This document shows positions 3,192 to 54,438 of a stretch of DNA of 64,000 nt, in pieces. How positions within the stretch are numbered: position 1 is the first letter of the stretch; every line of letters starts with the position of its first letter. The position numbers and the translations under genes were made by a program. This stretch comes from Deltaproteobacteria bacterium. GTDB taxonomy: Bacteria; Myxococcota_A; Polyangia; Polyangiales; Houyiibacteriaceae. The DNA lies in NCBI GenBank assembly GCA_034670305.1, contig JAXMNT010000001.1, positions 192,001 to 256,000 on the forward strand, written 5' to 3'. The notes beneath the pieces were generated by a model that did no database searches, was not told the DNA's origin, and saw only the letters and a list, made by a program, of their open reading frames with translations.

Positions 3192-3288
3192 GAACGAAGT
3201 CGCGGTCGCAGTGGAGCGGGGGTTCTGCGACGGAACTCCCCCCACTCCCCCACAACTCCCCCGAACTCTCCCCAAAACGGTTTCGGAT

Positions 3289-3448
3289 TCGGCAGCGGCA
3301 GTGGCAGCGGCAGCGGCAGTGGCAGTGGCACCAGCAGTCACAGCATCAGCGACAGCCCATGCTCTCCTTCGGAGTCGCGCGGTTTGTAGCCTCTCCTTCG
3401 GAAGTCGGCTCCTTCGTCCTTCGGACTCGGAGTGACCTGGGGGTGGGC
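3289..3448 (+). repeat. 160-bp direct repeat, copy 1 (pairs with 4080-4239)
   Basis: Manual alignment: 158/160 identical, mismatches at 3308/4099 and 3359/4150. Confidence 0.95.
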
Positions 3449-3626
3449 TTGCTGGCTCGGCGGGATCTTGATGGTGGCGGAGTGCTCGGGCGCGTCAAGG
3501 GTGCCTTCGGCCCCAGCCTTCGGAAGGCTGGCTTCGCCCTTGACCCGCCCTCCGCTCTCCACCGGGGGCGCACGGGGTGCGCCGCCGAGCAATGTCGCTC
3601 TGGTGTGTGGCGCGTTGGAGGCTGTG
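3385..3626 (+). other. Conserved structured non-coding leader, copy 1
   Basis: Homologous to 8855-9100 and 14424-14657; nested inverted repeats 3455-3463/3582-3590 and 3494-3501/3537-3544. Confidence 0.85.
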
Positions 3627-3938
3627 ATGATTGTTCTCGAATCTTGTTTCGTTCTCGTTGGTGAGTTGCGCGGGGTGCTGGCGGCTGTTTCTCGCCGGGA
3701 CCGTTCGCTGGGTGACCAGATGCGGCGGGCGGCTCAGTCCGTCGTTCTGAACTGCGCCGAAGCGAAGAACGCGCGGGGCAAGCGGAGCGTGGACCGCTTC
3801 TCCATCGCATACGGCGAAGCGAGTGAGCTGAAGGCGGCTCTTCGGTTGGTGCGGTTGTTCGGCTACGCGGAGGTTGGCGAGGAGGTGATGCGGCGGTGCG
3901 ACGAGGTCTGCGCGATGTTGTATCGGCTCAGTCGCTAG
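3627..3938 (+). CDS. Four-helix-bundle protein (23S rRNA IVP/TIGR02436-like; Avd-like fold)
   Basis: 103 aa; GGAGG RBS; L.DQMRRAA.SV.LN.AE and F.IA.GE..EL motifs; ~60% identical to 14658-14972 by manual count. Confidence 0.85.
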   Translation: MIVLESCFVLVGELRGVLAAVSRRDRSLGDQMRRAAQSVVLNCAEAKNARGKRSVDRFSIAYGEASELKAALRLVRLFGYAEVGEEVMRRCDEVCAMLYRLSR

Positions 3939-4001
3939 ACCGGCTGCGAGGCCCGCGCGAGTCGCGGGCCTCGGCGTCGGCAGCGCCAGGGGCAGCGGCT
4001 T

Positions 4002-4120
4002 TCGGCGTCGGCTTTGGCGTCGGCCTCGGCTTCGGCCTCGGCGTCGGCCTCGGCGTCGGCTTCGGCGTCGGCCTCGGCATCGGCAGCGGCAGTGGCAGTG
4101 GCAGCGGCAGTGGCAGTGGC
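4002..4120. repeat. Hexamer microsatellite (TCGGCN)n then (GGCAGY)n
   Basis: Period-6 tract visible directly. Confidence 0.9.
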
Positions 4121-4239
4121 ACCAGCAGTCACAGCATCAGCGACAGCCCGTGCTCTCCTTCGGAGTCGCGCGGTTTGTAGCCTCTCCTTCGGAAGTCGGC
4201 TCCTTCGTCCTTCGGACTCGGAGTGACCTGGGGGTGGGC
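4080..4239 (+). repeat. 160-bp direct repeat, copy 2
   Basis: See 3289-3448. Confidence 0.95.
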
Positions 4240-4340
4240 CTCCGTCGGATCAGGCGGCACGGCCTGCCCCAATCTGTCACTCCCCCGCCCTCGGTTTCGG
4301 CCGCCCTGACCGCGCCGCGTCAGGTGCTATCTTCCGGCCT

Positions 4341-7300
4341 ATGGCTTCACTCTTTCATGGGGGCGCGGCGCCTCGCTTCGCTGCTTCCCACGCCTTCGCG
4401 TCAAACTCGGGACGCTTGATCCCCGCGCTGCTCCTGTGCTCGTTGCTCCTCGCCTGCGGCGACGACGACACCACGCCCATCGATGCGGGCCCGAGCGACG
4501 CCGCCGATGTCGGCATCGACGTGCCGCTCCCCGACGGCCCGCGCGGCGACGTCCTGCGCATCCCGGAATCCGAGCGCCGCGAGCTGCCGCTGAACGACGA
4601 AGTCTACGTGCTTCGGACCGAGACCCACGTGCCGCACGTGTACGCCTCGAACGAACACGACCTCCGCGTCGTGCAGGGCTTCTTGATGGCCCGCGACCGC
4701 TACTTCCAGATCGAAGCCGGCCGCCGCCTCGGCCAAGGCACCCTCAGCGGTCTGGTCGGAGACGCAGCGCTCGCCGCTGACATCGGCGCCCGCACCCAGG
4801 GCATGACCCGGGTCGCCGACCGCTTGGCCGCGAGCCTCACCCCCGAACAACGCGAAGTCGTGCAGGCCTTCACCGACGGCGTGAACGCCTACGTTCGGCT
4901 CGCCAAAGCCCGCGGCATCGCGGCCCCGAGTGAGTTGACCATCGCCGCGCCCGTCTTTGGTGCGACCAGCGCCGGCGCGCTGATGGAAGAGCTCTCGCTC
5001 GAAGACCTCATCGCCTTCGCCGCGGTCCCCGTCTACCAGCTCGGCTGGGAAGCCAAGGACCTGCGCTACGCCGAAAGCGAAGCCTTCGTCGCGGACGTCT
5101 TCACCGGCGCGGAGACGGATGCGGAGCTCAGGCACGATGGTGCGGTCCAGGACATCTTCCAGAACGTCGACCCGATCAACGACATCGTCTCCGCCAGTGG
5201 CTTCGGGCTCGAAGAGGGCACGTCGTCGTTCCTGCCGAGCTTCGGCCCCCCCCGCGCCCCGGCCCGCTTCGTCGCGCCCCAGGCGATGCCGGTGGAGCGC
5301 ACCATGCTCGACCGCTTGCGCGCCCAGACGGACCGCTTCGAACACACCCTGCGTGGTCCGGTCGACGGAGACTTCGGGTCCAACGCCTGGGCCGTCGATG
5401 GCGCGCACTCGGAAGGCGGCGCAGCGCTCTTGGCCGGCGACGGACACCTCCCGCTCTCGATCGCGCCGCTCTTCTACCAGCTCGGTCTCGACACCAGCGT
5501 CTTCGGCGAAGGCGCCGACAACGACATCACCTTGATGGGCCTCTTCTTCGCCGGCATCCCGCACATGGCGGTCGGCACCAACGGCCGCGTCGCGTGGTCG
5601 CAGACTTACCTGCGCGGCGACGTCACCGACTGGTACGCCGAGGAGCTCGTGCTCGACGCCGAGGGCATGCCGGTGGCGACCCGTTTCGAGGGCAGCGACG
5701 AACCGCTCGTGCGCATCGAGGAGTCCTACGAGATCCGCAACGTGCCGGGCCTCGGCAGCGTCGGCCGCACCGAGACCATCGCCCGCTTCGAGACCTTCGA
5801 CGGCCGGCCGATCACCGCGATCGAAGGCCGCCCCGCCACCGCGGACACCGTGCCCGGCGACGGCGAGTCGCTCGTGAACATCGGCGGCGAATACGTCATC
5901 CCGGAGGACGTCGACGAAGACGGAACCATCAGCGCGGTCAGCTTCGACTTCGCGGGCTTCGACGTCTCCAACATCCTGCGCGCGCTCGAAGGCTTCAACG
6001 ACTCGAACACCGTCACCGACTTCCGCAACGCCACCCGCGAGCTCGTCACCTACGCGCAGAACCTGGTCGCGGCCGACATCGAAGGCGACGTCTACTACGG
6101 CAGCTACAACGCCATCCCCACCCGCGAGTACCTGGAGCGCACCGAAGCGGGCGGCCCGTGGACCCCTGGATCCGATCCGCGCAGCTTGCTCGACGGCACC
6201 CGCTACCGCGGCTTCGAGATCGTGCTCGACGAAAACGGCATGCCGGACGAGTCGATGTGCGCAGGCGATACCTACCGCTGCCTCGTGCCGTTCGATGAGT
6301 GGCCCGCCGCGCTCTCGCCCGACCGCGGCTTCGTGCTGACCGCGAACCACGACATCGCCAACATCACCACCGACGGCGACATCTTCGACGACCCGTACTA
6401 CCTCGGCGGCGCCTGGAACAACGGCTTCCGTGGCGCGTCGATCACCGCGGGCATCGTCGCGCTCGGCACCGGCGCGACCGCGGCGGCGATGAGCGAGCTG
6501 CAGAACGACCACCACTCCGTGCTCGGGCCGCTCTTCGTGCCCTACCTGCTCGAAGCGATCGACGAAGGCCAGCGGCTCGCTGCCGAAGAAGCGATCACGC
6601 CTTCCGAGATGCGGCTGCTCGCGATTTACACCGCCAACCAAGCCGCGCTCGATGAAGTCGAGACCCGGCTGGCCGCGTGGGTGGCCGGCGGCGCCGAAGC
6701 GGCGTCGGGTGTGGACACCTTCTACCACTCCGCCGATGGCGAAGCGGACGACAGCGTGGCGACCATGATCTTCAACGAGTGGTGGAAGAAGGTCATCGCC
6801 GCGACGTTCGAAGACGAAGGCATGGCGCCCGCGTTCGGGCCCGACGTCTCCACCAGCATCACCCGCGCGATGTACGACCTCTACCGCGGCCGCGGCGCCG
6901 GCAACCCCGCGGGGCTGCAGTCCTGGAACGTAGCGACGTCGGAGTCGGTCTTCTTCGACGACCTCGGCACGGTGGAAGTCGAGTCGAGCCACGAAGTCTC
7001 GCTCTCCGCGCTGACGACCGCGCTCGCCGCGCTCTCGGCCGACCCCGATCCCGAAGTGCCGGGCGTCGGCGGCTTTGGTTCCACGGACATGGACGACTGG
7101 CGCTGGGGCCTGCGTCACCTCGTCAAATTCGAGTCCCTGGTCGCGACCTTCGTCGGCACCGACCCGGCCTTTGCGCTCTTGGCCAACGGCTTCTCGATCA
7201 CCCCCGAGACCCTGCCGCTCGCCGAGGACCTCGAGGAGACCGACCCGCGCGCGACCCTTCCGTGGTTCCCGCGCCCGGGCGACCTCTTCAACGTCGACGC

Positions 7301-7559
7301 CGGCCACTACGATCCCTTCGCGGACGATTACTTCTATGCAAACGGCCCGGTCATGCGCATGGTCGTGCGCCTCGAAGAAGGCAACATCTCTGGCGTCAAC
7401 ATTCTCCCGGGCGGACAGTCCGGATTGACCGACTCCGACCAGTTCGACGACCAAGCCCAGCTCTGGCTCGCGAACGAGACGGTGCCGCTGCGTTTCCACG
7501 TGGCGGACGTCGTCGCAGGTGCGACCTCCCGCGAGACCTACGCCCCGATGGGCGACTGA
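4341..7559 (+). CDS. Penicillin acylase family (Ntn-hydrolase) lipoprotein
   Basis: VPHVYA and QGF.MARDR.FQ motifs; GSNAWAV beta-chain nucleophile; AGDGHL; TANHD; C-terminal PGGQSG. Confidence 0.9.
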   Translation: MASLFHGGAAPRFAASHAFASNSGRLIPALLLCSLLLACGDDDTTPIDAGPSDAADVGIDVPLPDGPRGDVLRIPESERRELPLNDEVYVLRTETHVPHVYASNEHDLRVVQGFLMARDRYFQIEAGRRLGQGTLSGLVGDAALAADIGARTQGMTRVADRLAASLTPEQREVVQAFTDGVNAYVRLAKARGIAAPSELTIAAPVFGATSAGALMEELSLEDLIAFAAVPVYQLGWEAKDLRYAESEAFVADVFTGAETDAELRHDGAVQDIFQNVDPINDIVSASGFGLEEGTSSFLPSFGPPRAPARFVAPQAMPVERTMLDRLRAQTDRFEHTLRGPVDGDFGSNAWAVDGAHSEGGAALLAGDGHLPLSIAPLFYQLGLDTSVFGEGADNDITLMGLFFAGIPHMAVGTNGRVAWSQTYLRGDVTDWYAEELVLDAEGMPVATRFEGSDEPLVRIEESYEIRNVPGLGSVGRTETIARFETFDGRPITAIEGRPATADTVPGDGESLVNIGGEYVIPEDVDEDGTISAVSFDFAGFDVSNILRALEGFNDSNTVTDFRNATRELVTYAQNLVAADIEGDVYYGSYNAIPTREYLERTEAGGPWTPGSDPRSLLDGTRYRGFEIVLDENGMPDESMCAGDTYRCLVPFDEWPAALSPDRGFVLTANHDIANITTDGDIFDDPYYLGGAWNNGFRGASITAGIVALGTGATAAAMSELQNDHHSVLGPLFVPYLLEAIDEGQRLAAEEAITPSEMRLLAIYTANQAALDEVETRLAAWVAGGAEAASGVDTFYHSADGEADDSVATMIFNEWWKKVIAATFEDEGMAPAFGPDVSTSITRAMYDLYRGRGAGNPAGLQSWNVATSESVFFDDLGTVEVESSHEVSLSALTTALAALSADPDPEVPGVGGFGSTDMDDWRWGLRHLVKFESLVATFVGTDPAFALLANGFSITPETLPLAEDLEETDPRATLPWFPRPGDLFNVDAGHYDPFADDYFYANGPVMRMVVRLEEGNISGVNILPGGQSGLTDSDQFDDQAQLWLANETVPLRFHVADVVAGATSRETYAPMGD

Positions 7560-7696
7560 CGCGATTGAAGTTTCACCCGCACCACCCTCGAACTGGCAAT
7601 GTGACGGCAACCCGCGTGCGGGTGCCCACCACGTTGTGTCGGGCACAGCTGTGAAGGCAAAAGTCCGCGGCGCGTAGGCGCGCGGCATTGGGGACC

Positions 7697-8707
7697 ATGA
7701 CCGAAGCCACCACCACCTCCGACCTCGAGGTCGCCGACTCCGAGCTGCTGCTCCGCCTCACCGGACCGAACAGCGCACACCTCAAAGCCCTTGGCTCCGA
7801 GTTCGACGTCGCGATGGGTTTGCGCGGCGACACGATCCGCATCCAAGGCGACGCCGCCAAAGTCGCGGTCGTCGAACGGGTGCTCGCGGAGCTGCTCGGC
7901 GTGCTCGCCCAGCGCACCCTGAGCGCCAACGAGATCGCGCGCGCCGCCCGCACCGTGGCCGACCACCCGGAGATGCACCTGCAGGAGCTCTTCGACGACG
8001 TCGTCCTGCGCACCGGCAGCAAACGCGTCATCTCCCCGAAGGGCGTCGCCCAGCAGTCCTACGTCGCGTCGATCCGTTCGCACGACGTGGTCTTCGGCGT
8101 GGGGCCGGCCGGCACCGGCAAGACCTACCTCGCGATGGCCATGGCGGTCGCGGCGCTTCAGGAGCGCTCCGTCAAACGCATCATCCTCACCCGGCCCGCG
8201 GTCGAAGCCGGCGAGAAGCTCGGCTTTCTTCCGGGAGACCTCGCGGAGAAGGTGAACCCCTACCTGCGTCCGCTCTACGACGCGCTGCACGACATGATGG
8301 ACGACTCGAAGGTCGCTGGCCTCATGGAGCGCCAGACCATCGAAGTCGCGCCGCTCGCGTTCATGCGGGGACGCACCCTGAACGACGCGTTCGTGATCTT
8401 GGACGAAGCCCAGAACACCACCCAGGAACAGATGAAGATGTTCCTGACCCGCCTCGGCTTCCGCTCGCGCGCGGTGATCACCGGCGACATCACCCAGGTC
8501 GACCTGCCCGGCGGCCGCCGCAGCGGACTCGCGGACGCGCAGTACTTGCTCGAAGGCATCGAAGGCATCGCGTTCTGCAAGTTCTCCGACGCCGACGTCG
8601 TACGTCACCCGCTCGTGCAAAAAATCATCCGCGCCTACGACGCACGAGACGCGAAGCGCTTCGCGGCCAGAGAAGCCAAACGCGCGAAGCGCGAAGAAGC
8701 CGAGTAG
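7697..8707 (+). CDS. phoH: PhoH family ATPase
   Basis: [59 protein letters not shown]. Confidence 0.95.
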
Positions 8708-8744
8708 CGCCGTAGCTAGGCCGGTAGGGGAGGAGTAGGGCTGT

Positions 8745-8856
8745 AGAAGCAGCTGCAGACGCGGTGGCACAGCAGAAGCAGCGGCAGAAGCAGCGACAGA
8801 AGCAGCGGCAGGAGCAGCGACAGCGGCAGAAGCAGCGACAGCGGCGGAAGCAGCTG
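8745..8856. repeat. Hexamer microsatellite (GCAGAA/GCAGCG/ACAGCG)n
   Basis: Period-6 tract directly upstream of leader copy 2. Confidence 0.85.
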
Positions 8857-9100
8857 TAGCCTCTTCCTTCGGAAAGTCGGCTCCTTGCAATCCTTTGGAT
8901 TTTGGGAACACCCCAATTGGTTGGGCTTGCTGGCTCGGCGGCAGATTGATGGTGGCGGAGTGCTCGCCTGCGTCAAGGGTGGCCTTCGGCCCCCAGCCGA
9001 TGCGGCTGGCTTCGCCCTGGACCCAGGCTCCGCTCTCCACCGGGGGCGCTCCGCGCCGCCGAGCAATGTCGCTCTGGTGTTTGGCGCGTTGGAGGTCCTG
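8855..9100 (+). other. Conserved structured non-coding leader, copy 2
   Basis: Strong similarity to 3385-3626, with compensatory stem changes. Confidence 0.85.
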
Positions 9101-9190
9101 ATGATTGTTCTCATCCGCTCGTACGCCGAAGGTGAGGGCGCCCGAGAGGTCTACCGGGACATCGCCGGCTTCCTGCTCGACTCGCGCTGA
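9101..9190 (+). pseudogene. Truncated four-helix-bundle gene (MIVL) fused to an unrelated tail
   Basis: ATGATTGTTCTC matches the start at 3627 exactly, then diverges; 29-aa ORF. Confidence 0.6.
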
Positions 9191-9206
9191 GGCGCCGATC
9201 GTGGAC

Positions 9207-11042
9207 TCACTCGGTGGGTGAGGGGTTCTCGATCGCGAAGTTGATCACATAGGGTGGGTCGAAGACTTCCGGCACGCCGCCGGCCACGTCCCGAACGCCG
9301 CCGGTCACGAAGAGCGAGCCGGCGATGCGGGTGTTGCTCGATTCGGCGGCCAAGACGAAGCCTTGGTTGAGCAGGAAGTTCGGCGCCCCGTCGATCTCCA
9401 CGAAGAGGTTGGCGCCGGGCCCGAGCGGGTAGACGCCGCGTGGCCAGGAGACCTCTTCGATGGGCGTGTCCATCGCGGCGACGGCGATCTGGAGCGTAAG
9501 CACCGCGGGGTACGAAGCGTCCCCGAACCCCGAAGTCCCGGAGGCGTTCATGACGAAGACCTTGGCGCCTGGGCCGGTCCCGAGGTACGCGCGCACATCG
9601 CTGACGTAGGGCGAGTCCGCGGACCCGTCGCGACGGAACGTGAAACCAACGGCCGTGCCCTCGAGGTTCACGTCGCCCACGCACTCGGCCACGTCTTCGG
9701 TGGAGATGAGACCGAGGTCGCGCGCGAAGTGCAGCTTCGTGTACAGCGCCGCGAACCGAGAGGGCACACCCATCGTGTCCATGTGGGCGCGCATCACCTG
9801 GCAGCCGATGTCCTTGCCGGTCACGCGCTCGTCTGCGTAGACGGGTCCCATGATGCCCCACGCCACCATCTCTGCGATGTCGTCGGTGAGGCGGGTGGCG
9901 CCGTACCGGGACATGGCACCCCCGAGCGCGACCGCCTGATCGGTGCCGGCCGTGAGTGCTTCCTCCTCGCTGCCGGCCAATCGGGTCGCCAGCCGATCCC
10001 AGCGCGAGGGGTGCGGTGCCGCCCAGCCGAGCTCCACGAACTCTTCGTGCAGCCGCTCCCATTCCTGTACGAGTCCCCGCTGCAGCCGCACGTGTCGGAT
10101 GGTGGTGCGCGCCGTGCTTCGCCAGGACTCGGCCCACATGCCTCCGAAGTCTCCTGGGTGCCGTCCCTCGACGCCGAGCAAGAAGGTCGCCGCGTGGGTC
10201 GCTTCATGCAGCAGCGTTTGCTGTGTGCCGAGTTGGCCGGACAGGCCCGGCAGCATGACCCGCGCGTTCAGAACGACGATGTCACCTTCGGACTGAGAGA
10301 CGAAGCCAGCCACCCCGCTGGCGCGTTCCATGAATGCGATTCGGGAAACGGAGTGACAGAGCAGGCGCGGCATCCGGTTCAGGCCGGCCTCCACCGCGGT
10401 GCGCAGAGCCGGGCTCGCGGTGACGAGCACGTCGCCGTCGTGGAGCACCCCGCGGAGCCGGTCGCCGTCCGTCTCGTCCATGATCTGGACGTGTGCGCAC
10501 GCTGCGTTCGAGCGGCTGAGTGCTTCGGTCCGGGGCGCGACGATCGCGGCGGGGGTCGCCATGGTGACGAGCGTTGTCCCGGTGTCGTCCACGAGCGCGA
10601 TCTCGGTCGCGTCGAGGTTGCCGCGCAAGTAGCCAACGGCGCTGACCACGCCTTCGATGAGGGACTCCTCGTGGTAGGGCAGGCCGCTATCGTCGTAGTG
10701 CATCGACCGGGTGTCGGCGAAGTGCAGGAGCTGCCCGTCGACCTCGACGCCAGCGCTGTCGCGCGCAACCAGGAGCACCTCGCCGGTGGCGGGACCGGGC
10801 GGGATGCCGACCTCGGACAGCACGTCTACGCTGTCGACGTCACCGAGGGTGAAGATGCCGTCGGTTTCTCGAAAGACGGTGACCCGCCAGATGGGTTCCT
10901 TCGGTCCCGAGAGATCGAAGTACGGCGACTCACCGCACCCCGGGGTGGCGGCGCAGGCTTCTTCGTAGGTCTCGAACTCAGCGGGTTCGGTATCGCCGCA
11001 GCCGATGGTGAATGCCAAGAGGACGCAGAGTGATCGGAGCAT
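9207..11042 (-). CDS. Lipoprotein with HEXXH motif, putative zinc metallopeptidase
   Basis: Signal peptide ending TIGC; LLHEATH; downstream YGAT..TDDIAE. Confidence 0.65.
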   Translation of the reverse strand: MLRSLCVLLAFTIGCGDTEPAEFETYEEACAATPGCGESPYFDLSGPKEPIWRVTVFRETDGIFTLGDVDSVDVLSEVGIPPGPATGEVLLVARDSAGVEVDGQLLHFADTRSMHYDDSGLPYHEESLIEGVVSAVGYLRGNLDATEIALVDDTGTTLVTMATPAAIVAPRTEALSRSNAACAHVQIMDETDGDRLRGVLHDGDVLVTASPALRTAVEAGLNRMPRLLCHSVSRIAFMERASGVAGFVSQSEGDIVVLNARVMLPGLSGQLGTQQTLLHEATHAATFLLGVEGRHPGDFGGMWAESWRSTARTTIRHVRLQRGLVQEWERLHEEFVELGWAAPHPSRWDRLATRLAGSEEEALTAGTDQAVALGGAMSRYGATRLTDDIAEMVAWGIMGPVYADERVTGKDIGCQVMRAHMDTMGVPSRFAALYTKLHFARDLGLISTEDVAECVGDVNLEGTAVGFTFRRDGSADSPYVSDVRAYLGTGPGAKVFVMNASGTSGFGDASYPAVLTLQIAVAAMDTPIEEVSWPRGVYPLGPGANLFVEIDGAPNFLLNQGFVLAAESSNTRIAGSLFVTGGVRDVAGGVPEVFDPPYVINFAIENPSPTE

Positions 11043-11103
11043 GCGTCGGAGTGTACGGCAGGAAGGGAATGCCCGGACCTGCCGCACGCGCTATCAAGCC
11101 CGC

Positions 11104-12843
11104 ATGGGTGCGCGTTCTCTTATCGTTGGGCTCGACGGGGCCGATGTGTCGGTCCTCGAGGAGCTTGGGCCGCGGCGGCTCCCGAACCTCTACGCGCACA
11201 TGCAAAACGGCGCTTGGGCGCGGCTGGAGAGTGTGCGGCCGCCCGCGACGTTGCCGAACTGGACCACCTTTCTGACCGGCATGGATCCGGGGCGGCACGG
11301 GGTCTTCGACTTCACCACCCGCGATGGGTACGGGGTTCGTTTCACGGCCGGCACGGTGCGGGAGACGCCGACTTGGATCGCGCGGCTCGATGCGCTCGGC
11401 AAACGCTGCGCGTGCGTTGGGTTTCCTGGGACTTGGCCGCCTGAGCCGCTGGAGCATGGGATCTTCATCAGCGGGTGGGATGCGCCCGTCGCGTTTGAAG
11501 CGGACCGTTCGTTTGTGTGGCCGGAGGTCCTGTTCGACCGGATCGTGCAGCGGTTCGGACCGATGGACTTCGACGTGGGCGAGTTCGATGCCGACGCGGA
11601 AGGCTGGCACGATGGGCTGGCGGACTTGCTGGTCTCGAAGATCGAACGCAAGACCGCGCTCGCCCAGTGGCTGATGGACCCGTCGTCGGGCGGCGCTTCC
11701 GAAGACAGTACTGCGCTTCCCACAGACAGCACGGACTGGGACGTGTTCGCGTTCTACTTCGGCGAGAGCGACACCGTCGCGCACCACCTCTGGGCCCACC
11801 ACGATCCGGGCTCGCCGCGCCATCCGAGCGGCGCTTCGGCGCGCAGCCGCGCGGGGCTCGGCAAGGTCTACGAAGCGCTCGACCGCGCGGTCGGCGCGCT
11901 GGTTCAGGCCGCGGGCAAGGATGTGGAACTCACCCTGGTGAGCGATCACGGCTCCGGTGGGTCGAGCGACAAAGTGCTCTACCTCAACCGCGCGCTCGAG
12001 CAGGCGGGGCTGTTGAAGTTTGCGCCCACTTCGATCCTGCCGTGGAGCCGCTTGGCCAAAGACGCCGCGCTCACGCTCTTGCCGCCTCGGCTCAAAGAAC
12101 GGCTCTTCCGCGCGTACGGCGCGCGCCTGCCGAGCTGGCTCGAATCGCGCGCCCGGTTTGGCGCGATCGACTTTGGCGCCACCGTCGCGTTCAGCGATGA
12201 GCTCAACTACTTCCCGGGCGTGTGGCTGCACCTCGCCGGTCGCGACCCGCTCGGTTTCGTGCCCGAAGAAGAACGCGATGCGCTCGCCCGCCGGGTGAGC
12301 GACGCGCTCTACGACTTGCGGGATCCGTGGTCCCGCGAGCCCGTCGTCGAAGCGGTGCACCGGCGCGAAGTGATCTTCGACGGCGACTTCGTGGAGCGCG
12401 CGCCGGATCTCTTGCTCGACTTCCGCCTCGACCACTCGGAGAGCCCGCGCGGCTACAGCTACAACCTGATGCCCACCGCGAGCGCGCCCCGCGGCATTGG
12501 CGCGTGGCGCCGGCTCGCGGAATCCGAGCACCTCGGCCGCAAAGGACGCAGCTTGCCCGGCAGCCACCGCAACCACGGCTTCTTCGCGGCCTCCGGACCG
12601 AGCGTCGACGCGGTCGGGGAAGTGGACGCACACATCGCCGACGCTGCCGCCACGGTGCTCGCGCGGCTCGGCGCGGAGATCGACCCCGTGATGCGCGGCC
12701 GCGTGCTCTTTGAAGTCTTGCGCGACACTGCGGGCACGACCGAAGCGCTGCCCGCTGCCCGGGTGGCCAAGGGCGGCACGGGCGGTGGGGACGGCGAAGC
12801 CCGGGTCGAAGCCCGGCTGCGTGCGCTCGGCTACATCGACTGA
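11104..12843 (+). CDS. Alkaline phosphatase superfamily / type I phosphodiesterase
   Basis: IVGLDGA, PP.T.P.WTTF.TG.DPG.HGVFDF, VSDHG, C-terminal RLRALGYID. Confidence 0.9.
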   Translation: MGARSLIVGLDGADVSVLEELGPRRLPNLYAHMQNGAWARLESVRPPATLPNWTTFLTGMDPGRHGVFDFTTRDGYGVRFTAGTVRETPTWIARLDALGKRCACVGFPGTWPPEPLEHGIFISGWDAPVAFEADRSFVWPEVLFDRIVQRFGPMDFDVGEFDADAEGWHDGLADLLVSKIERKTALAQWLMDPSSGGASEDSTALPTDSTDWDVFAFYFGESDTVAHHLWAHHDPGSPRHPSGASARSRAGLGKVYEALDRAVGALVQAAGKDVELTLVSDHGSGGSSDKVLYLNRALEQAGLLKFAPTSILPWSRLAKDAALTLLPPRLKERLFRAYGARLPSWLESRARFGAIDFGATVAFSDELNYFPGVWLHLAGRDPLGFVPEEERDALARRVSDALYDLRDPWSREPVVEAVHRREVIFDGDFVERAPDLLLDFRLDHSESPRGYSYNLMPTASAPRGIGAWRRLAESEHLGRKGRSLPGSHRNHGFFAASGPSVDAVGEVDAHIADAAATVLARLGAEIDPVMRGRVLFEVLRDTAGTTEALPAARVAKGGTGGGDGEARVEARLRALGYID

Positions 12844-12854
12844 GGTCCTTCCGC

Positions 12855-13922
12855 ATGCGCATGCTGCACATCGCCTGTCTGCCGATGCCGAGCCCGCAGG
12901 GGACGCAGGCGGTGCTGCGCACGATGACCGAAGCGCTCGCGCGGGCGGGGCACGAGACGCATCTGCTGACCTATGGGTACGGCGCGGGGGCGGCGCTCGA
13001 GGGGGTGCTGCACCATCGATGTGGAAGAAGTGGCAGGGGCTCGATGCGCTCCGGTCCCTCGTGGTCGAAGGTGCGGGACGACGTGTTCATGGTCGCGTCC
13101 ACCCGCCGGCTCGTGCGTCGCCTGCAGCCCGAGGTCGTGGTTGCGCACAACGTGGAAGCCGCGCTCGTCGTGAACACGGCGACTTCCCTCCTGGCCGTCC
13201 GTCCCCGCACTCTCTACTTCGCGCACACCCGCTTCGATCTCGAGCTGCCGACCTACGGCCGCGTCGGCCGTGCGGGCGCCGTGTTTGGTCGCGCGCTCGA
13301 CACGCTCGCTTGCCGGCTCGACCAAGTCGTCGCGATCTCGCCGGCGCTGGGAGATCATCTCGGCGCGCCGGTCGTGCTGCCACCGTGGCCAGTTGCGGCG
13401 CCGATCTCGGACGACGAACGTCGCGCGGCGCGCACAGCGCTCGGTCTCGCCGAAGACGAACCGGTGCTGCTCTACGCGGGCAACCTGGACGGCTACCAGG
13501 GCTGGGAGGTTGCGGCCGCCGCGGCACAGGCGGTGGGTGCGACGTGGCTCGTCGCAACTGAGTCGGACCCGGCGCCGCTGCGGCGCTTCCCGCATCTGCG
13601 GATGCGCTTGGCCACCGAAGCGAATCGAAGACGCGCGCACGCGGCCTGCGATCTCGCGCTCGTGCCGCGGCGCACCCCGGGCGGACTGCCGATCAAGCTG
13701 CTCGATGCACTTGCGCGGGACGTGCCGGTGGTGGCGAACCGGCGCGCGCTCGCGGGGCTGAGTGCGGCCGGCGTGGAGGTGTGCGTGGACGATGACGTGG
13801 ACGCGTTCGCGGCGGCGATTCGGCGCGCGTTGAGGGAGCCGCCGAGGGGGGGGTGGGCGTGGGTGGCGGAGACGTTCGGGGAGGACGGGTTCGTGCGGGG
13901 GTTGTGGGAGAGCGTGTCGTAG
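12855..13922 (+). CDS. Glycosyltransferase family 4 (GT-B)
   Basis: LARAGHETHLLTY, YAGNLDGYQG, GLPIKLLDALA..VPVV. Confidence 0.85.
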   Translation: MRMLHIACLPMPSPQGTQAVLRTMTEALARAGHETHLLTYGYGAGAALEGVLHHRCGRSGRGSMRSGPSWSKVRDDVFMVASTRRLVRRLQPEVVVAHNVEAALVVNTATSLLAVRPRTLYFAHTRFDLELPTYGRVGRAGAVFGRALDTLACRLDQVVAISPALGDHLGAPVVLPPWPVAAPISDDERRAARTALGLAEDEPVLLYAGNLDGYQGWEVAAAAAQAVGATWLVATESDPAPLRRFPHLRMRLATEANRRRAHAACDLALVPRRTPGGLPIKLLDALARDVPVVANRRALAGLSAAGVEVCVDDDVDAFAAAIRRALREPPRGGWAWVAETFGEDGFVRGLWESVS

Positions 13923-13934
13923 CGGCCCGCGTGT

Positions 13935-14420
13935 GGGCTGTGTTGCTGTTCGCTGTTCGCTGTTGCGGTTGCTGACTCTGACGCTGACGCTGACGCTGAC
14001 GCTGTTGCTGATTCTGATTCTGATTCTGATTCTGACTCTGATTCTGACTCTGATTCTGATTCTGACGTCGCAGCCGAAGCCGAACCCGAAGCCGAAGCCA
14101 CATCCGAATCCGAATCCAAAGCCGACGCCGAAGCCGACGCCGAAGCCGAAGCCGAAGCAGACGCCGAAGCAGACGCCGAAGCCGATTCCGCCACCACGAC
14201 CCCCACCGCTACCGCGACCCCCACCGCTACCGCGACCCCCACCGCTACCGCGACCCCCACCGCTACCGCTACGCGACCCCCACCGCTACCGCGACCCCTA
14301 CCGCTACCGCTACCGCTACCGCGACCGCCTCCGCCTCCGCTTCCGCTTCCGCTTCCGCGACCGCTTCCGCTTCCGCGACCGCTTCCGCGACCGCTCCGCT
14401 TCCGCGACCAGGACCGCACC
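13935..14420. repeat. Compound microsatellite: (GCTGTTC), (TGACGC)n, (TGATTC)n, (GCCGAA)n, 18-mer CCACCGCTACCGCGACCC, (CCGCTT)n
   Basis: Visible directly; ends at leader copy 3. Confidence 0.95.
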
Positions 14421-14423
14421 GCT

Positions 14424-14657
14424 TGTAGCCTCTCCTTCGGAGTCGGCCTCATCCTCTCCTTCGGAATCGGATTCGGGTCCGATGGGGCTGGGGTTGTGCC
14501 CGGCGGGAGGTCAAGCGTGTCGTCTGGCGTGCCAGGCCTCAAGGGGGCCTACGGCCCGGCGGGATGCCCGCCGCTTCCTTGACCCCTGACCCGCCAGACG
14601 ACGGCGGCCTGCGGCCGCCGGGCATGTCGCTCGGTCGTCGTCACACAGGGGTCTCCG
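14424..14657 (+). other. Conserved structured non-coding leader, copy 3 (divergent)
   Basis: Shares TGTAGCCTCTCCTTCGGAGTCGGC, TCAAGG/CCTTGA and ATGTCGCTC; same stem topology with different stem sequences. Confidence 0.8.
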
Positions 14658-14972
14658 ATGATCGTTCTTCAAACTTCCTTCGAACTCGTGCGTTCGCTGC
14701 GCGCTCAGGTACTGCCGCTCGTACGCAAACACGACGCTTCGCTAGCGTCACAGATGCAGCGCGCGGCGCAGTCCGTGGTTCTGAACATCGCAGAGGCTCG
14801 GCAGGCGCGAGGACTTCGTTGTCATGACAAGTTCTCGATTGCCTACGGAGAGTGCAGCGAGCTGAAGGCTGCGATTCAGCTCGCTGAGGTCTTTGGGTAC
14901 ATCGACCTGGACGCGACGCTCCTCGATCGGTGCGACTACGTCTGCGCGATGCTGTACAAGCTCAGCCGTTGA
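14658..14972 (+). CDS. Four-helix-bundle protein, paralog 2
   Basis: 104 aa; QMQRAAQSVVLNIAEA and FSIAYGECSELKAA. Confidence 0.85.
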   Translation: MIVLQTSFELVRSLRAQVLPLVRKHDASLASQMQRAAQSVVLNIAEARQARGLRCHDKFSIAYGECSELKAAIQLAEVFGYIDLDATLLDRCDYVCAMLYKLSR

Positions 14973-15053
14973 GGTTCGGCCGGCGTCCAAGGGGCGCCGG
15001 CCCCTGAGCCAAGGGCGGAGCGTCCGCCGGACGCTCCGCTTCGCGCCCGCCCA

Positions 15054-20844: not shown

Positions 20845-22926
20845 TCAGTACTCAGGCGGCTCAGACGGCCGCACCCCCACCGCCCGAGGCTCACCGGAAT
20901 CAGAATCCGGCCCATCGGCATCGGAGTCGGCTCCAGAGTCGGAGTCGGAGTCGGAGTCGGAGTCGGAGTCGGATTCGGATTCGGATTCGGATTCGGCCTC
21001 GGAGTCGGCCTCGGCTTCGGCTTCGGCTTCGGCTTCGGTTTCGGATTCGGCTTCGGCTTCGGAAGCGGAAGCGGAAGCGGCTTCGGAACCGGAACCGGAA
21101 GCGGCTTCGGAAGCGGAAGCGGAAGCTCCAGGCTTCTCCCCCCCCGCCCACCGCTCGAGCCCGCCATCCATCGGCGCCGGTGGCGGGTTCGACGCCAACG
21201 CGGGCGGGATGAAACTCACCCGCGACCCGGCCGCCTCGGCCGCCGCCGCCTCGCGCTTCTCGCGTTGCACCGCCACCGCACTGGCGATCTTGCGAACGCG
21301 CGCTTCGAGCAGCACCCAGAAGAAGAGCGCGAGCAACCCGTAGACGACCACGGGCAGCAACACTTCGATCAGCCGGTGCACCTGGCCGTCATCCGCGATC
21401 TCGATCCCCAAAATGAGGTGCATGATCGGCGAGAACCGCACGAGCATGGGCGGGTCGTCGTCGAGGTTGTCGAGCGAGTCCGGGTTGATGATGACCGAGG
21501 CGAGCAGCGGCATCACGATCAGCACGAGCACCGTGGCGATGCTGAGGACCCGCGCGGCCACGCCGCTGCGCAACACCACCCGCAACCACGCGCCAAAGCT
21601 CGTGGTGAACAGGCACACCGCGGCGGTGCCGGCGGCGATGCACATGAGCCCCGCGTCGGACTGCAGGTGGTCGGGGTGCGATGGGAACATGTAGTAGCGC
21701 GCCGCCGATGCCGCGATGGCGCTGCCGAAGCTGGCCAGTACGATCATCAATCCGGCAAAGCGGGTGGTCGGCGCTGCGCCCGGGCCGAAGATGCCCAGCG
21801 CCTTGCGTGCGGTGCCCTGTTCCTGTCTGCGCAGCTCCCACAGGCGGGGCGGCAGCGGCGGCTCGTTGATGAACATCAACGCCAGGAAGAAGATCGGAAA
21901 CGACCAGAAGATGTTCATGCCCACGGCGGCTTCGGGGATGTCGTGGTGGTCCCACAGGGTCGTGGTGCCGAACATGATGCCGACCATGCCGACCGCCGCG
22001 ACGATGGCCCACCACTTGAACGGGGTGGACCGGTCTTCGGCGGTTGGACGCACTCCGGCGATGGCCGAGGCGAGGAAGAACCACACCAGCATCACCGAGA
22101 CGTAGATCGGGAGCACGCCGAGCAGCAGGAAGGTGTCGCCTTCGAAGAACCGGTTCGCGAGCGCTTCGGTGAACCAGAACGGCCCACTCATCGTCAGGTC
22201 CCAATCGCGCTCGGCGGCTTCGCCAAACGCGGCCAGGATCAGGGTGGCGATGAAGGAGCTCGGCACGAAGATGCCGAGCGAGAGCAGGATCGAAACCCGC
22301 GTCGAGGTGACCCGTGCGGAGAGCGCGATGCCGAGCGCGACCGCGGGGCCGAGCACGAGGATCAAGCCGTAGAAGCCGATGATCACGTGGAGCGGCGAGA
22401 TGCCGCCGAAGAGGAACGCGATGCCGACGATGGGCGCGAACGCGACCAGCACCAGGGAGAACATCCCGAACGAGGCGAGGAACTTGCCCCACACGATGCG
22501 GGCCGGATCCATGCCCGTGAGAATGAGGGACTCGTACGTGCCCATCTCCCGTTCGCCGGTGAGCGAGGTCGCGGCGTGCGCCGGTGCGACGAGGCAGAGC
22601 ACCATCAGCGCCATCGAGAAGAAGAACTGGAAGACGATCTGCCCGACCTGGGCCGGCGCCATCGATTGAGCTGCGATGGACGCGCCGCTGACCAGAACGA
22701 TCAGCGCGACGAGGCCAGTGCTCAAGTACAAGAAGCGGATGAAGAGCTTGGTGCGGAAGACCGTGCGCAGCTCTTTGACCAAGATCGGGTTCGGATCCCG
22801 GAACCACTCGCGGACGCTGGGCACGAGTCCGCGCTTCTTGGGCGGCGGAAGGCTGGCGCCGGCAGAGGGGTCGGCGGGTGCGCCGGGCTCAGGCACCGAA
22901 CTGGGGGTGGCGGTGGAGGTGCTCAT
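20845..22926 (-). CDS. ABC-2 type permease-like membrane protein with acidic repeat tail
   Basis: [18 protein letters not shown]....RIVWGKF; many TM segments; C-terminal EA/ES/DS repeats. Confidence 0.85.
20935..21126. repeat. In-frame hexamer microsatellite in the permease 3' end
   Basis: (TCGGAG)n (TCGGAT)n (TCGGCT)n (GGAAGC)n. Confidence 0.9.
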
Positions 22927-27075: not shown

Positions 27076-28863
27076 TCAGCGACCTTCGCCGAAGAACGTC
27101 CGTACGTGTTCGCGGTAATCCTCGGGAATGGGCGCGCGCTCGATGCCGCCAGCTTCTCCGCTCACGGCTTCACCGGTCGCACCACCGGTTCCTTCGGCGC
27201 GCCCCGCGACGGGGGTGCCGTCGGGGTTGACCCACTCGGTCCAACTGCGCCCAGGGGCACCGGGGCCGATCATGGGGCGGACCCGGGCGAGTGGACCTTC
27301 GGGGGCGCCGTTGTGCTCGCGGGTTTGACCGCCGCGTTCGCCAGGCCCGCCGCCTTGGCCACCGGTGCCGCCCGCGCCCGCTCCGCCGCCGTTTCCGTTC
27401 CCGTTCCCGTTCCCGTTCCCGTTCCCGTTCCCGTTTCCGTTTCCGTTCCCGTTTCCGTTTCCGTTCCCGTTTCCGTTCCCGTTTCCGTTTCCGTTCCCGT
27501 TTCCGTTTCCGTTTCCGTTCCCGTTTCCGTTTCCGTTTCCGTTGCCCTGACCGGGCATCGGCATGCCGCCTTGGCCGGCTCCGCCAGTCTGCGCTTGCAG
27601 GTCGTCGAGGTGTTCGAGTGCTTCGCGGAGCATGCGTTCGTATTCGTCGGCGCTGATCGGTTGTCCGCCGCCCGCTTCGGCATTCTGTTGCGCGGCGTCG
27701 TTTTCCGCGGCTTGGGCGTTTCGGAGCGCCTCGGCGAGTCGCTCGCGTTCTTCCGCACTCAAGCGGCTCCAGGCGTCGCGCATCGCGTCGACCATCTCCT
27801 GGGTGAGCTCGCTGCCATCGCCGTCCCGTTCGAGCCGTTCGAGCTGGCGGCGCACTCCGTCGCCCTGCATCTCCGGCATCGCCTCCGAGAGTTCGCGCGC
27901 GAGCTCTGCTTGCTGGCTGCGTCGGTCGAGCAACCGCTCTCGGTTCAAGAGCGATTCCGCCAGCGCTTCGTCGCCTTCTTCGCGTGCGGCTTCGGCGGCT
28001 TGTTGAAGGGCCTGTCGCGCGGCGTCCCGGTCCGCCTGTTCGCGTTGCGCGGCGGCACGCTCCACGGCCCGATCGAGCGACTCGAGATCCCGCTCTGCGA
28101 GTGCACGCGCCATCTCGGGCTGCGACTCGAGTGCGTCCACAGCGGCGTCGCGGGCGCGCCGCTCTTCTGGGGTCACCGGGCGCCGGGTCTCCTCGACCCG
28201 CTCGCGCAGCGCGTCGAGGGCATCGAGCGCTTCCCGCTGCTCGAGTCCTTCCGCCAGTTGGTGCCGCAGCTCGGCCGCTTCCCGCGCCAACTCCTCGAGT
28301 TCGCGCTCGTGTTCCTCATCCCGAGCGAAGTCCTGCAGACGTTCGATGCGGCGAAGTGCATCGGCGTCGTCGATCTGGACTTCGGTCGGCGCGGGTCCGG
28401 TCGTCTCGGGGGGCGGCACCGGCACGAAGAGCGCAGCCACGAAGAACGTCCCGGCGAAGGGCACGCTCCAGAGGTGGTTGCCGAAGACCCGTGGTCGGAC
28501 GTCCTTGGCCTTGGCCGCCGACAGCTTGGACTCGGCCGCTGCGACCGCCATGGCGCCGAACTCGTCGGGCTGTGCGCCGAGGCCCCATGCGGTCACGATG
28601 CTGGCACCGGCATCGAGTTGTTCGTCGACGTAGAGGACCAGGTCGGACTCGCTGGGCAACTTTCGGATCGCCCAGATCAATCCGGCGATCGGTCCAAGCG
28701 CGAGCAGGGCGAGACCAGGCCAGCGAGGCCACGTGGGCAGGCCGAGCGCCACCACGAGCAGCAACGCCCCGAGCACCACGGCGACCGTCACGCTCACGGA
28801 CACGACGCGCCGAGCCAAGAGGGCCCTGCGAATGGTGGCGATCAGTGGGTGAAGTCGGTTCAT
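27076..28863 (-). CDS. Membrane-anchored coiled-coil protein with (GN)n tract (start uncertain)
   Basis: N-terminal TM segments; long E/R/A helical region; C-terminal IPEDYREHVRTFF. Confidence 0.75.
   Translation of the reverse strand: MNRLHPLIATIRRALLARRVVSVSVTVAVVLGALLLVVALGLPTWPRWPGLALLALGPIAGLIWAIRKLPSESDLVLYVDEQLDAGASIVTAWGLGAQPDEFGAMAVAAAESKLSAAKAKDVRPRVFGNHLWSVPFAGTFFVAALFVPVPPPETTGPAPTEVQIDDADALRRIERLQDFARDEEHERELEELAREAAELRHQLAEGLEQREALDALDALRERVEETRRPVTPEERRARDAAVDALESQPEMARALAERDLESLDRAVERAAAQREQADRDAARQALQQAAEAAREEGDEALAESLLNRERLLDRRSQQAELARELSEAMPEMQGDGVRRQLERLERDGDGSELTQEMVDAMRDAWSRLSAEERERLAEALRNAQAAENDAAQQNAEAGGGQPISADEYERMLREALEHLDDLQAQTGGAGQGGMPMPGQGNGNGNGNGNGNGNGNGNGNGNGNGNGNGNGNGNGNGNGNGNGNGNGNGNGNGGGAGAGGTGGQGGGPGERGGQTREHNGAPEGPLARVRPMIGPGAPGRSWTEWVNPDGTPVAGRAEGTGGATGEAVSGEAGGIERAPIPEDYREHVRTFFGEGR
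27390..27545. repeat. (CCGTTY)n hexamer tract encoding Gly-Asn repeats
   Basis: About 25 hexamer units, in frame. Confidence 0.95.
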
Positions 28864-30575: not shown

Positions 30576-30619
30576 GGCGCGAGGGTCGCCGAGTGCCGTA
30601 CGGGGGTCAATCGCGGACC

Positions 30620-30922
30620 CGGACGGAAGCGGAACCGGAAGCGGAAGCGGAAGCGGAAGCGGAAGCGGACGCGGAAGCGGGAGCGGGAGCGGAAGCGGAA
30701 GCGGAAGCCGAAGCGGAAGCGGAAGCGGGAGCGGTAGCCGAAGCGGAAGCGGAAGCGGAAGCGGGAGCGGTAGCCGAAGCGGAAGCGGAAGCGGAAGCCG
30801 AAGCCGACGCGGAAGCCGAAGCCGAAGCCGATGCCGAATCCGAAGCCGAAGCCGACGCCGAAGCCGACGCCGAAGCCGACGCCGATGCCGAAGCCGATGC
30901 CGATGCCGAAGCCGAATCCGCC
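30620..30922. repeat. Intergenic hexamer microsatellite (GGAAGC)n / (GCCGAA,GCCGAC,GCCGAT)n
   Basis: Visible directly. Confidence 0.95.
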
Positions 30923-30925
30923 GAC

Positions 30926-53683: not shown

Positions 53684-53905
<222 letters not shown>

Positions 53906-53907
53906 CG

Positions 53908-54438
53908 TCAACGCAGCAGGTCGAGCTCCTCGAACACGATGGCCAACATGTACGCGCGGAAGATGCCGCCCGCGTCGCCCCAGCCCATCCTCCAAGGCAT
54001 CTGATGCGGGTTCACGGTGCGGCGTCCCAAGTCGTTGCGGAGAAATCCTTGGAGCGCCTGCCGCACCGCGCGCAGGTCCCATTGCCAGTCGGGGCGCGCG
54101 GCCGCGATCTCGTCGAGCCGAGGCTTCGCGTCTCGGGCCTTCTCCAGAATGTCCATGTAGGCATGCGTCAACGGGGGCGCCTCGGGATGGCGCTGGGTGC
54201 GAATCAGCGCTTCGGCAATTCTCGAGTCCGCGCCGATCTCCGACGGGTCGGGGTAGTGGCGACCCAACGGTGGCACCAGACCATAGAGCAGCGCTCCGAC
54301 CGCCTTGGCGGTGGTGGTCGCCTGCGAGATCACGTCGTTGACGAGCGGATCCCGGAACTCGCCTGTCGTCGGGTTCAGAGCGCGCCGTACCTGCCGCTCG
54401 ATGTCGGAGAAATCGAGGGCACGAATCTCCGAGTGCAT
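53908..54438 (-). CDS. Hypothetical protein
   Basis: 176-aa ORF with plausible composition, directly after the HAD gene. Confidence 0.6.
   Translation of the reverse strand: MHSEIRALDFSDIERQVRRALNPTTGEFRDPLVNDVISQATTTAKAVGALLYGLVPPLGRHYPDPSEIGADSRIAEALIRTQRHPEAPPLTHAYMDILEKARDAKPRLDEIAAARPDWQWDLRAVRQALQGFLRNDLGRRTVNPHQMPWRMGWGDAGGIFRAYMLAIVFEELDLLR

Follow-up and report, generated by a model that had tools for sequence, protein, structure and literature searches.

A conserved multi-helix element with C-TNC-G triloops in the 5' flank of a multi-copy PF05635 cassette of the Polyangiales

We analyzed a stretch of 64,000 nucleotides from the draft genome of a deltaproteobacterium (Polyangiales, Houyiibacteriaceae; GenBank assembly GCA_034670305.1), covering positions 192,001 to 256,000 of contig JAXMNT010000001.1 and hereafter called the window. 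The genome comprises 7.9 Mb in 105 contigs, of which the source contig is contig C1, and the G+C content of the window is 68%. Hairpins with three-base loops (triloops) are clustered in four stretches of the window, at positions 3345–3626, 4140–4240, 8850–9095, and 14420–14657. Two of these stretches lead straight into small open reading frames (ORFs) of the family PF05635 (3627–3938 and 14658–14972), which Pfam names the "23S rRNA intervening-sequence protein" (IVP). The hairpins are arms of a conserved multi-helix element of ~135–160 nt, hereafter the core element, in the 5' flank of a small multi-copy cassette that carries the PF05635 gene. The remaining genes of the region are ordinary (penicillin amidase, PhoH, phosphodiesterase, and glycosyltransferase).

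The cassette consists, in order, of an array of period-6 repeats, a repeat-like 5' module (in subtypes A and D only), the core element, a Shine-Dalgarno sequence, the ORF, and a 3' hairpin. Among the copies of this genome, the core is 132–162 nt long and is separated by 20–60 nt, carrying the Shine-Dalgarno sequence, from an ORF of ~103 aa. A GC-rich hairpin lies immediately past the stop codon, often followed by more repeat arrays. Core elements were annotated on the gene strand, and the selected strand may be the minus strand.

Copy A of the window starts with a period-6 (GGCAGY)n array adjoining the cassette at 3278–3344 (no strand assigned; repeat families D5 and D8), followed by the repeat-like 5' module at 3345–3451 (+), in which the hairpin scan located C-TTC-G hairpins at 3364–3374 and 3416–3426. 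Its core element, of subtype A, occupies 3452–3592 (+; covariance model 119.6 bits, with folding z-scores) and contains the closing helix P1, the long helix P2, P3 (TCAAGG/CCTTGA), P4 (GCC-TTC-GGC), P5 with a CGG loop, the mini-hairpin GGC-TTC-GCC, and P6 with a GGG loop. The ORF at 3627–3938 (+) encodes an IVP/Avd-like protein of 103 aa (PF05635, E = 6.3e-14; fold match to PDB 2gsc), and the inverted-repeat search placed a GC-rich hairpin past its stop codon at 3940–3980 (+), which is terminator-like and has no T run. Copy D is preceded by several period-6 arrays at 13930–14419 (no strand assigned; repeat families D1, D3, D4, and D7). Its 5' module at 14420–14493 (+; inverted-repeat search and hairpin scan) carries the hairpin CTCC-TTC-GGAG at 14432, and its core element, of subtype D, at 14494–14625 (+; 102.8 bits, with z-scores) carries GGGCC-TAC-GGCCC, a hairpin with an ATG loop, and CGGCGGCC-TGC-GGCCGCCG. 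The IVP/Avd-like ORF of copy D (14658–14972, +; 104 aa) also belongs to PF05635 (E = 1.4e-15), and its 3' hairpin, GGCCGGCGTCC-AAGG-GGCGCCGGCC, lies at approximately 14976–15002 (+) and has a T.G pair on the gene strand.

The other two hairpin stretches belong to partial copies. A solo array with 5' module at 4069–4239 (+) is 96% identical to 3278–3448, carries hairpins at 4155 and 4207, and has neither core nor ORF. Copy C has a 5' module at 8850–8929 (+; sequence and hairpin scan) and a core element of subtype A at 8930–9066 (+; covariance model 119 bits) with the hairpins GGCC-TTC-GGCC, an ATG loop, GGC-TTC-GCC, and GGCGC-TCC-GCGCC, followed by a remnant ORF at 9101–9190 (+), of which only the first four codons (MIVL) match IVP genes. 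In this copy, the element and the Shine-Dalgarno sequence have been kept, and the IVP gene past MIVL has been swapped for unrelated sequence with a stop after 29 codons.

Covariance-model searches found 38 matches to the core in this genome, and tblastn found 37 IVP genes. Nearly all of the regions upstream of the IVP genes share a homologous structured stretch, whose three subtypes parallel three subtypes of the protein. The 5' module was found in this genome only beside IVP leaders of subtypes A and D. The nearest solved structure to the window protein is PDB 2gsc, a pentameric four-helix-bundle protein, and the available excerpt of PMC10053308 likens the PF05635 family to Avd, the accessory protein of diversity-generating retroelements (DGRs).

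The core consists of the closing helix P1, the long P2, and P3 of invariant sequence (TCAAGG/CCTTGA), with two to four short hairpins (P4, P5, a GC-TNC-GC mini-hairpin, and P6) within or beside the main helices. In 104 distinct copies from relatives, standard pairs occupied 90.7% of the cells of the 31 modelled pairs, compared with 64.6% in shuffled alignments, and cells with changes on both sides numbered 701, compared with 220 in shuffles. Sliding the partners by 1–3 columns reduced pairing to 32–48%. Because the relatives' alignment was fitted to the model, these pairing and covariation figures lean toward the structure; in a hand-checked alignment of this genome's own copies, the same compensatory changes were observed between subtypes. 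Judged by this comparative evidence, the core is a conserved multi-helix structure.

The core element was also found in other genomes. With a first covariance model, matches came from 8 of the 61 relatives sampled and, within the family, from 10 of 88 genomes; a second model, built with those hits, detected the core in 26 of 151 genomes of the order, representing 17 of 77 genera. The copy-rich relatives had 21, 16, 13, and 11 matches per genome with the second model. Of 11 relatives' loci given to a script, 9 had an ORF of 105–132 aa beginning 8–58 nt past the core, one was cut by a contig end, and one was assigned another frame by the script. All nine aligned products beside the core in relatives belonged to PF05635. 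Rfam 15 gave no match in the window at gathering scores, and between 3200 and 15000 a search at E ≤ 10 returned two chance-level hits elsewhere than in the element. No published description of the element was found in the literature on PF05635, the intervening-sequence (IVS) protein, and Avd (supplements not covered). We therefore regard the core element as undescribed.

An earlier sequence-only reading of the window had listed eight hairpins, and all of them are present where it placed them: CTCC-TTC-GGAG at 3364, 4155, and 14432, GTCC-TTC-GGAC at 3416 and 4207, GCC-TTC-GGC at 3503 and 8982 (the latter within GGCC-TTC-GGCC at 8981), GGGCC-TAC-GGCCC at 14545, GGC-TTC-GCC at 3530 and 9008, GGCGC-TCC-GCGCC at 9045, and CGGCGGCC-TGC-GGCCGCCG at 14602. 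That reading had also assigned them to a triloop register rather than to a plus-strand UUCG tetraloop, rightly, because, in the UUCG register, the closing pair is followed by a C.C clash. The four window stretches contain 17 triloop hairpins with at least four Watson-Crick pairs, of which ten have C-TNC-G loops, none has a C-GNA-G loop, and seven are exceptions. These off-rule loops (GTG, CGG twice, GGG, TTT, and ATG twice) are real and include the GGG, CGG, and ATG loops that had been named before; the CGG, ATG, and GGG loops are mostly in hairpins P5 and P6. The hairpins at 3364, 3416, 4155, and 4207 belong to the repeat-like 5' module of two subtypes of this genome, so the loop rule rests mainly on the hairpins of the core.

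To count loops over the whole element family, we took 136 distinct cores (32 from this genome and 104 from relatives) and recorded every hairpin with a three-base loop and a stem of at least four Watson-Crick pairs. This census yielded 417 triloop hairpins. On the gene strand, 241 had TNC loops, 238 of them closed by C-G, and only four had GNA loops, three of them closed by C-G. The middle base of C-TNC-G varied freely (TTC 113, TGC 94, TAC 18, and TCC 13), and the 238 hairpins stood on 53 different 5' stem arms, with at least one such hairpin in 126 of the 136 copies. The copies are related, so the loop counts are not independent events; what persists across differing stems is the C-G closing pair together with the first and third loop bases. 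In the whole genome, among stems of at least five pairs, C-TNC-G (594) and C-GNA-G (576) together made up 1170 of 16500 triloop hairpins (7.1%). Tabulated by strand over many copies, as the sequence-only reading had proposed, the loops of the element thus showed an extreme strand bias rather than none. GNRA-type tetraloops were absent on both strands from the top loop lists of the census.

When the other strand is read, C-TNC-G becomes C-GNA-G. The GC-TNC-GC mini-hairpin, the complement of GCGNAGC, was present in 30 of 31 aligned copies of this genome (28 TTC, one TGC, and one TAC). The stability of GNA triloops in DNA, which the sequence-only reading had invoked, is borne out by the available part of PMC13037366: among GCNNNGC fragments, a mini-hairpin formed only with GNA, with melting temperatures (Tm) of 70–76 °C, and a sheared G-A pair underlies it. 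In the same excerpt, r(GCGAAAGC) has a Tm of 39 °C, compared with 76.5 °C for its DNA counterpart, and GNNA tetraloops in DNA equal GNA triloops in stability. In our calculations, nearest-neighbour parameter sets assigned equal hairpin energy to the two strands. We know of no reason for a U-N-C loop rule in RNA.

To compare the two strands by their mismatches, we used a Watson-Crick-only fold, in which G-U is forbidden and which is therefore strand-symmetric, and counted single mismatches that have two or more pairs on either side. The cores of this genome contained 4 G.U and 27 A.C mismatches, and those of relatives contained 62 G.U (58 of them T.G, almost all at one conserved site) and 47 A.C. 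The cassette 3' hairpin, which is surely a feature of the messenger RNA, showed the reversed pattern, with 13 G.U against 2 A.C in this genome and 13 against 5 in relatives. In 55 cluster representatives of the relatives, with the conserved site excluded, the core had 4 G.U and 27 A.C mismatches and the tail had 7 and 3, respectively (p = 0.0013, Fisher test). An A.C mismatch on the gene strand is a G.T mismatch on the complementary strand. In the 31 annotated pairs of 29 distinct copies from this genome, there were 0 G.U and 21 A.C cells. Alignment-based wobble counts were set aside in favor of the strand-symmetric count; they were dominated by two column pairs and the poorly aligned P6, and were fitted to the gene strand.

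Folding stability relative to dinucleotide shuffles also differed between the strands. For copies A and D of the window, the z-scores of the minus strand were lower than those of the plus strand with RNA parameters (−4.99 against −2.94, and −6.77 against −5.82) and with DNA parameters (−5.14 against −3.81, and −5.95 against −4.37). When every third of the 136 copies was surveyed (46 copies), the antisense z-score was lower in 33, with means of −5.94 and −4.90 for the antisense and gene strands. Among rare, presumably derived substitutions in this genome's copies, G>A outnumbered C>T (91 against 50; inside the element, 28 against 13). This excess could reflect a bottom strand that is single-stranded more often, and a mutation bias could supply part of the A.C excess; a 2:1 bias falls short of the ~7:1 ratio outside the conserved site. 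Together, the C-GNA-G triloops and the tolerance of G.T-type mismatches suggest that the strand complementary to the gene carries the signature of the fold.

Genes and signals that might accompany such an element were searched for in the genome and the window. Reverse transcriptase genes (RVT_1) numbered three in the genome, on contigs C23, C10, and C67 only, with none on contig C1. Eleven genes for IS200-like HUH transposases (Y1_Tnp, ~235 aa) were found, and none adjoined a cassette; these paralogues lie on contigs C20, C31, C38, C68, C1, and six more, the nearest being at C1:180072–180362, 12 kb before the window. No reverse transcriptase appeared among the ORFs listed for the relatives' loci either; no search was made for pairs of template repeat and variable repeat. 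Both strands of the two window cassettes showed no promoter-like site in a sigma-70-type scan, which is blind to GC-rich promoters, and terminator-like sites in these cassettes were at chance level. A sigma-54-like TGG-N8-TTGC motif noticed by eye before P1 was dropped, as its spacing differs among copies. No complementary arms enclosing the ORF were found in four loci (the two window cassettes and two others). Among public sequencing runs, no RNA run was listed as containing this DNA; five runs of DNA or of unknown type were, of which four may be its source.

The sequence-only reading had held that the strand complementary to the transcript is the folded one. Loop bias, mismatch spectrum, and shuffle-corrected stability speak for this claim, and the conserved U.G pair and the leader position speak against it. 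Its further suggestion of an msDNA-like product or a transposition intermediate is hypothetical, and no gene linkage speaks for it. We lean toward the antisense strand as the one whose fold has been selected. If so, the triloop chemistry favors DNA over RNA, and selection of that strand as DNA is our tentative proposal, which may well turn out otherwise. A number of observations weigh against this proposal. With the conserved site included, the core of the cluster representatives had 36 G.U and 27 A.C mismatches and the contrast with the tail was gone (p = 0.51), and excluding that site was a post hoc choice. One pair of helix P2, close to its inner end, reads U.G on the gene strand for 63 of the 104 relatives' copies (G-C, C-G, or A-U elsewhere), and this conserved U.G pair is a C.A mismatch on the other strand. 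At every locus examined, the element lies directly 5' of the ORF and in the same orientation, with the Shine-Dalgarno sequence after it; a 5' position is classic for an RNA leader, and folding of a sense RNA is expected in any case. In some lineages, the GC-TNC-GC mini-hairpin is replaced by GGC-UUCG-GCC, which on the gene strand is a good RNA tetraloop. Raw minimum free energies were nearly equal between the strands with both RNA and DNA parameters, and no GNNA tetraloops were seen in the element, though they are equally stable in DNA. No reverse transcriptase, HUH, or other DNA-processing gene was seen beside any copy. The copies are related, and the alignments (A3, A5, and A6) were fitted to a gene-strand model. 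In this genome, 32 of 37 cassettes have their gene strand on the strand that is locally richer in G, compared with 52% (0.519) of 778 long ORFs, which would fit strand-specific insertion at replication forks; this orientation bias was absent in relatives (29 of 54), and for this reason it is not used as support.

Much of this would be expected if the element were a sense RNA leader, that is, a cis-regulatory or protein-binding RNA in the 5' untranslated region of the IVP messenger, which the pentameric IVP protein would bind for autoregulation or in a ribonucleoprotein, with the C-UNC-G loops read by the protein or by tertiary contact. The constant place and orientation before the Shine-Dalgarno sequence and the ORF, in this genome and at 8–58 nt in 9 of 11 relatives' loci, the covarying multi-helix junction (90.7% paired; 701 against 220 compensatory cells), the U.G pair kept in 63 of 104 copies, and the UUCG variants all suit it, as do the AT-rich first codons of the ORF, which are those of translated genes, and the PF05635 assignment of all nine aligned products. 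In addition, Avd homologues act in ribonucleoproteins with structured RNA, according to the excerpt of PMC10053308. However, C-UNC-G matches no known RNA stability motif, and each element has three such loops and no GNRA; A.C exceeds G.U outside one site, the opposite of the cassette 3' hairpin, with 0 G.U against 21 A.C cells in 31 pairs of 29 copies of this genome; the gene strand folds worse than its complement relative to shuffles; and no Rfam family matches. A sense leader is thus a serious possibility, which we rate below folded antisense DNA. The loop, mismatch, and z-score evidence for the antisense strand applies equally to an antisense non-coding RNA, whether it runs divergently from the 5' end of the IVP gene or antisense to it, and G.U tolerance in such an RNA, with its GNA triloops, would suit RNA at least as well as DNA. 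We nevertheless consider it unlikely: RNA versions of such hairpins are much less stable (PMC13037366, in excerpt), RNAs normally use GNRA or UNCG loops and no GNRA type occurs on that strand, the 8–58 nt between element and ORF leave little room for a divergent promoter, and no promoter-like site was found on either strand by a scan that is blind to GC-rich promoters.

It is also conceivable, though very improbable, that no single-strand fold is selected at all. The palindromes would then be a by-product of the origin of the cassette, for example from mirror-image hexamer repeats, or double-stranded DNA or cruciform sites for a protein, and the loop rule would reflect repeat ancestry. The 5' module indeed resembles repeats and shows 76% complementarity to a (GCCGAA)n array farther upstream, the genome is rich in period-6 arrays with TCGG/CCGA cores, and the sequence of P3 is invariant. 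Nevertheless, the long-range helices P1 and P2 show compensatory changes across genera, the loop rule is kept across 53 different stems and many genera, and none of the core hairpins is a repeat unit.

If the antisense strand is indeed folded as DNA, the bottom strand would form a compact cloverleaf, resistant to nucleases and to single-stranded DNA-binding protein, whenever it is unpaired. It could become so if complementary DNA (cDNA) is made from the cassette transcript, if displacement or replication leaves it single, or if it acts as a template-strand hairpin signal upstream of the gene. A protein would then recognize the folded strand, with the pentameric Avd-like product as the obvious candidate, and the folded strand might serve in cassette propagation, priming, or gene control. 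A fuller version, in which an Avd-linked element works through folded antisense single-stranded DNA, is speculative, and we think it improbable in its entirety. In that version, the transcript would be copied by a reverse transcriptase acting in trans together with the cassette's Avd-like pentamer, or the bottom strand would be peeled off. The GNA-capped cloverleaf would then be a stable intermediate that spreads the cassette, perhaps through annealing of the flanking hexamer repeats at replication forks, or it would be a signal.

Further features of the cassettes were noted. As a REP-like (repetitive extragenic palindromic) family, defined by GTAG and a hairpin, the 5' module was rejected as a candidate, since ~21 of 24 seed-plus-hairpin matches in the genome are located at IVP leaders or at what remains of them. 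The 5' module of copy D (14428–14476) is 76% complementary over 49 nt to a (GCCGAA)n array 275 nt upstream (14104–14152), so the module looks like a degenerate mirror copy of the array, and a mirror-array origin may account for its TCC-TTC-GGA hairpins. Two derivatives without an ORF were found in this genome (G000), at G000:C22:10039–10260 (locus L035) and G000:C18:54465–54700 (locus L036), in which the core is joined within or just after P6 to the cassette 3' hairpin, as if by clean deletion of the gene. These two derivatives and the many copies at contig ends fit a cassette that is mobile or recombining.

Insertions and paired units were also observed. A structured insertion of ~72 nt splits P2 in two copies of subtype A, L017 (C28:6972–7043) and L027 (C68:36198–36269), and has 11 matches in the genome, mostly partial. 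L008 and L034, of subtype E, have small related or different insertions in P4 and P6. In relatives, two different units of element and IVP gene are often convergent, tail to tail and ~50 nt apart (L102, L114, L124, L129, and L150), so that two paralogous genes for pentamer-forming proteins are paired. More long period-6 arrays, free of cassettes, lie between genes or at gene ends in the window (20908–21141, 27346–27577, 30599–30952, and 53728–53919). Between positions 1 and 10000 of the window, the cumulative GC skew drops until ~8000 and then climbs.

To our knowledge, PF05635, the IVS protein/Avd family, is very large, and a function is known for it only in DGRs. The present results connect a gene of this family with a nucleic-acid structure that is conserved, shows covariation, and is open to model-based searches. 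If the folded partner is the DNA strand opposite the gene, it would be a chromosomal, multi-copy, branched single-stranded DNA built from GNA mini-hairpins, and stand-alone Avd-like proteins would be linked to the handling of DNA or cDNA, as in DGRs. Should the folded partner be the sense RNA, C-UNC-G triloops would count as a recurrent loop motif new to RNA. Either outcome would be informative, and the loop rule and the mismatch asymmetry, which has an internal control, indicate useful oligonucleotides and probes.

The element shares features with several known systems, and differs from each of them. Compared with IS200/IS605 elements or REP sequences and their associated tyrosine transposases (REP/RAYT), neither a Y1 HUH transposase beside the element nor one flanked by its repeats was found here. 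Retrons (msr-msd, producing multicopy single-stranded DNA) resemble it in the myxobacterial setting and in the notion that a structured transcript has a folded cDNA as its complement; unlike in retrons, a PF05635 ORF and not a reverse transcriptase gene is always downstream of the element. The intervening sequences with an ORF in the 23S rRNA of Coxiella and Leptospira (PMC4990558, in excerpt) encode the same family (PDB 2gsc) in a small, selfish-looking cassette, and in our case short tandem repeats adjoin the cassette, as in those. Unlike them, the cassette lies outside rRNA (no rRNA match in the window with Rfam), has no enclosing arms in four loci, and has as its conserved part a branched element upstream of the ORF.

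The available part of PMC3240598 reports that target sites of DGRs, systems in which Avd occurs, depend on a DNA hairpin with a GRNA loop that must be kept and a stem that is free to vary. DGRs thus share with the present system an Avd-family protein encoded next door and a GC-rich hairpin with a free stem and a constrained G..A loop. The DGR loops described in that excerpt are 4-nt GRNA loops that belong to the target gene's sense strand and lie downstream of the variable repeat, with a reverse transcriptase and template repeat nearby, whereas the loops here are 3-nt GNA loops on the antisense strand, upstream of an Avd-like gene, with no reverse transcriptase nearby. The early promoters of phage N4 and the single-strand initiation signals (ssi) of plasmids, as far as the excerpts of PMC13037366 and PMC5449611 describe them, likewise use a C-G-closed 3-nt loop of G..A type as a signal in unpaired DNA, and the CCTTCGG of the present element has its complement, CCGAAGG, in ssiA. 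In those systems, a lone hairpin is recognized by the RNA polymerase of a phage or the primase of a plasmid, and nothing implicates such an enzyme here.

At the telomeres of Streptomyces, the 3' overhangs form multi-hairpin "clover leaf" or "rabbit ears" structures with GNA loops, according to the excerpt of PMC5449611. The likeness lies in a high-GC host and a single-stranded DNA with several GC-rich, GNA-capped hairpins, bound in that case by dedicated proteins. The Streptomyces palindromes are terminal on linear replicons and prime end-patching (same excerpt), whereas the element described here is internal, dispersed, multi-copy, and beside a PF05635 gene. The DNA mini-hairpins d(GCGNAGC) of Hirao and co-workers (PMC13037366, in excerpt; PMC3201870, abstract) follow the same rule as the minus strand here, with G at loop position 1, A at position 3, a free middle base, C-G closing, and short GC-rich stems, and most copies of this genome contain the exact complement of GCGAAGC. 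In the excerpt of PMC13037366, these mini-hairpins are isolated hairpins, in oligonucleotides or at phage and plasmid origins, whereas here a 140-nt, covarying element next to a gene carries about three putative ones at the ends of its arms.

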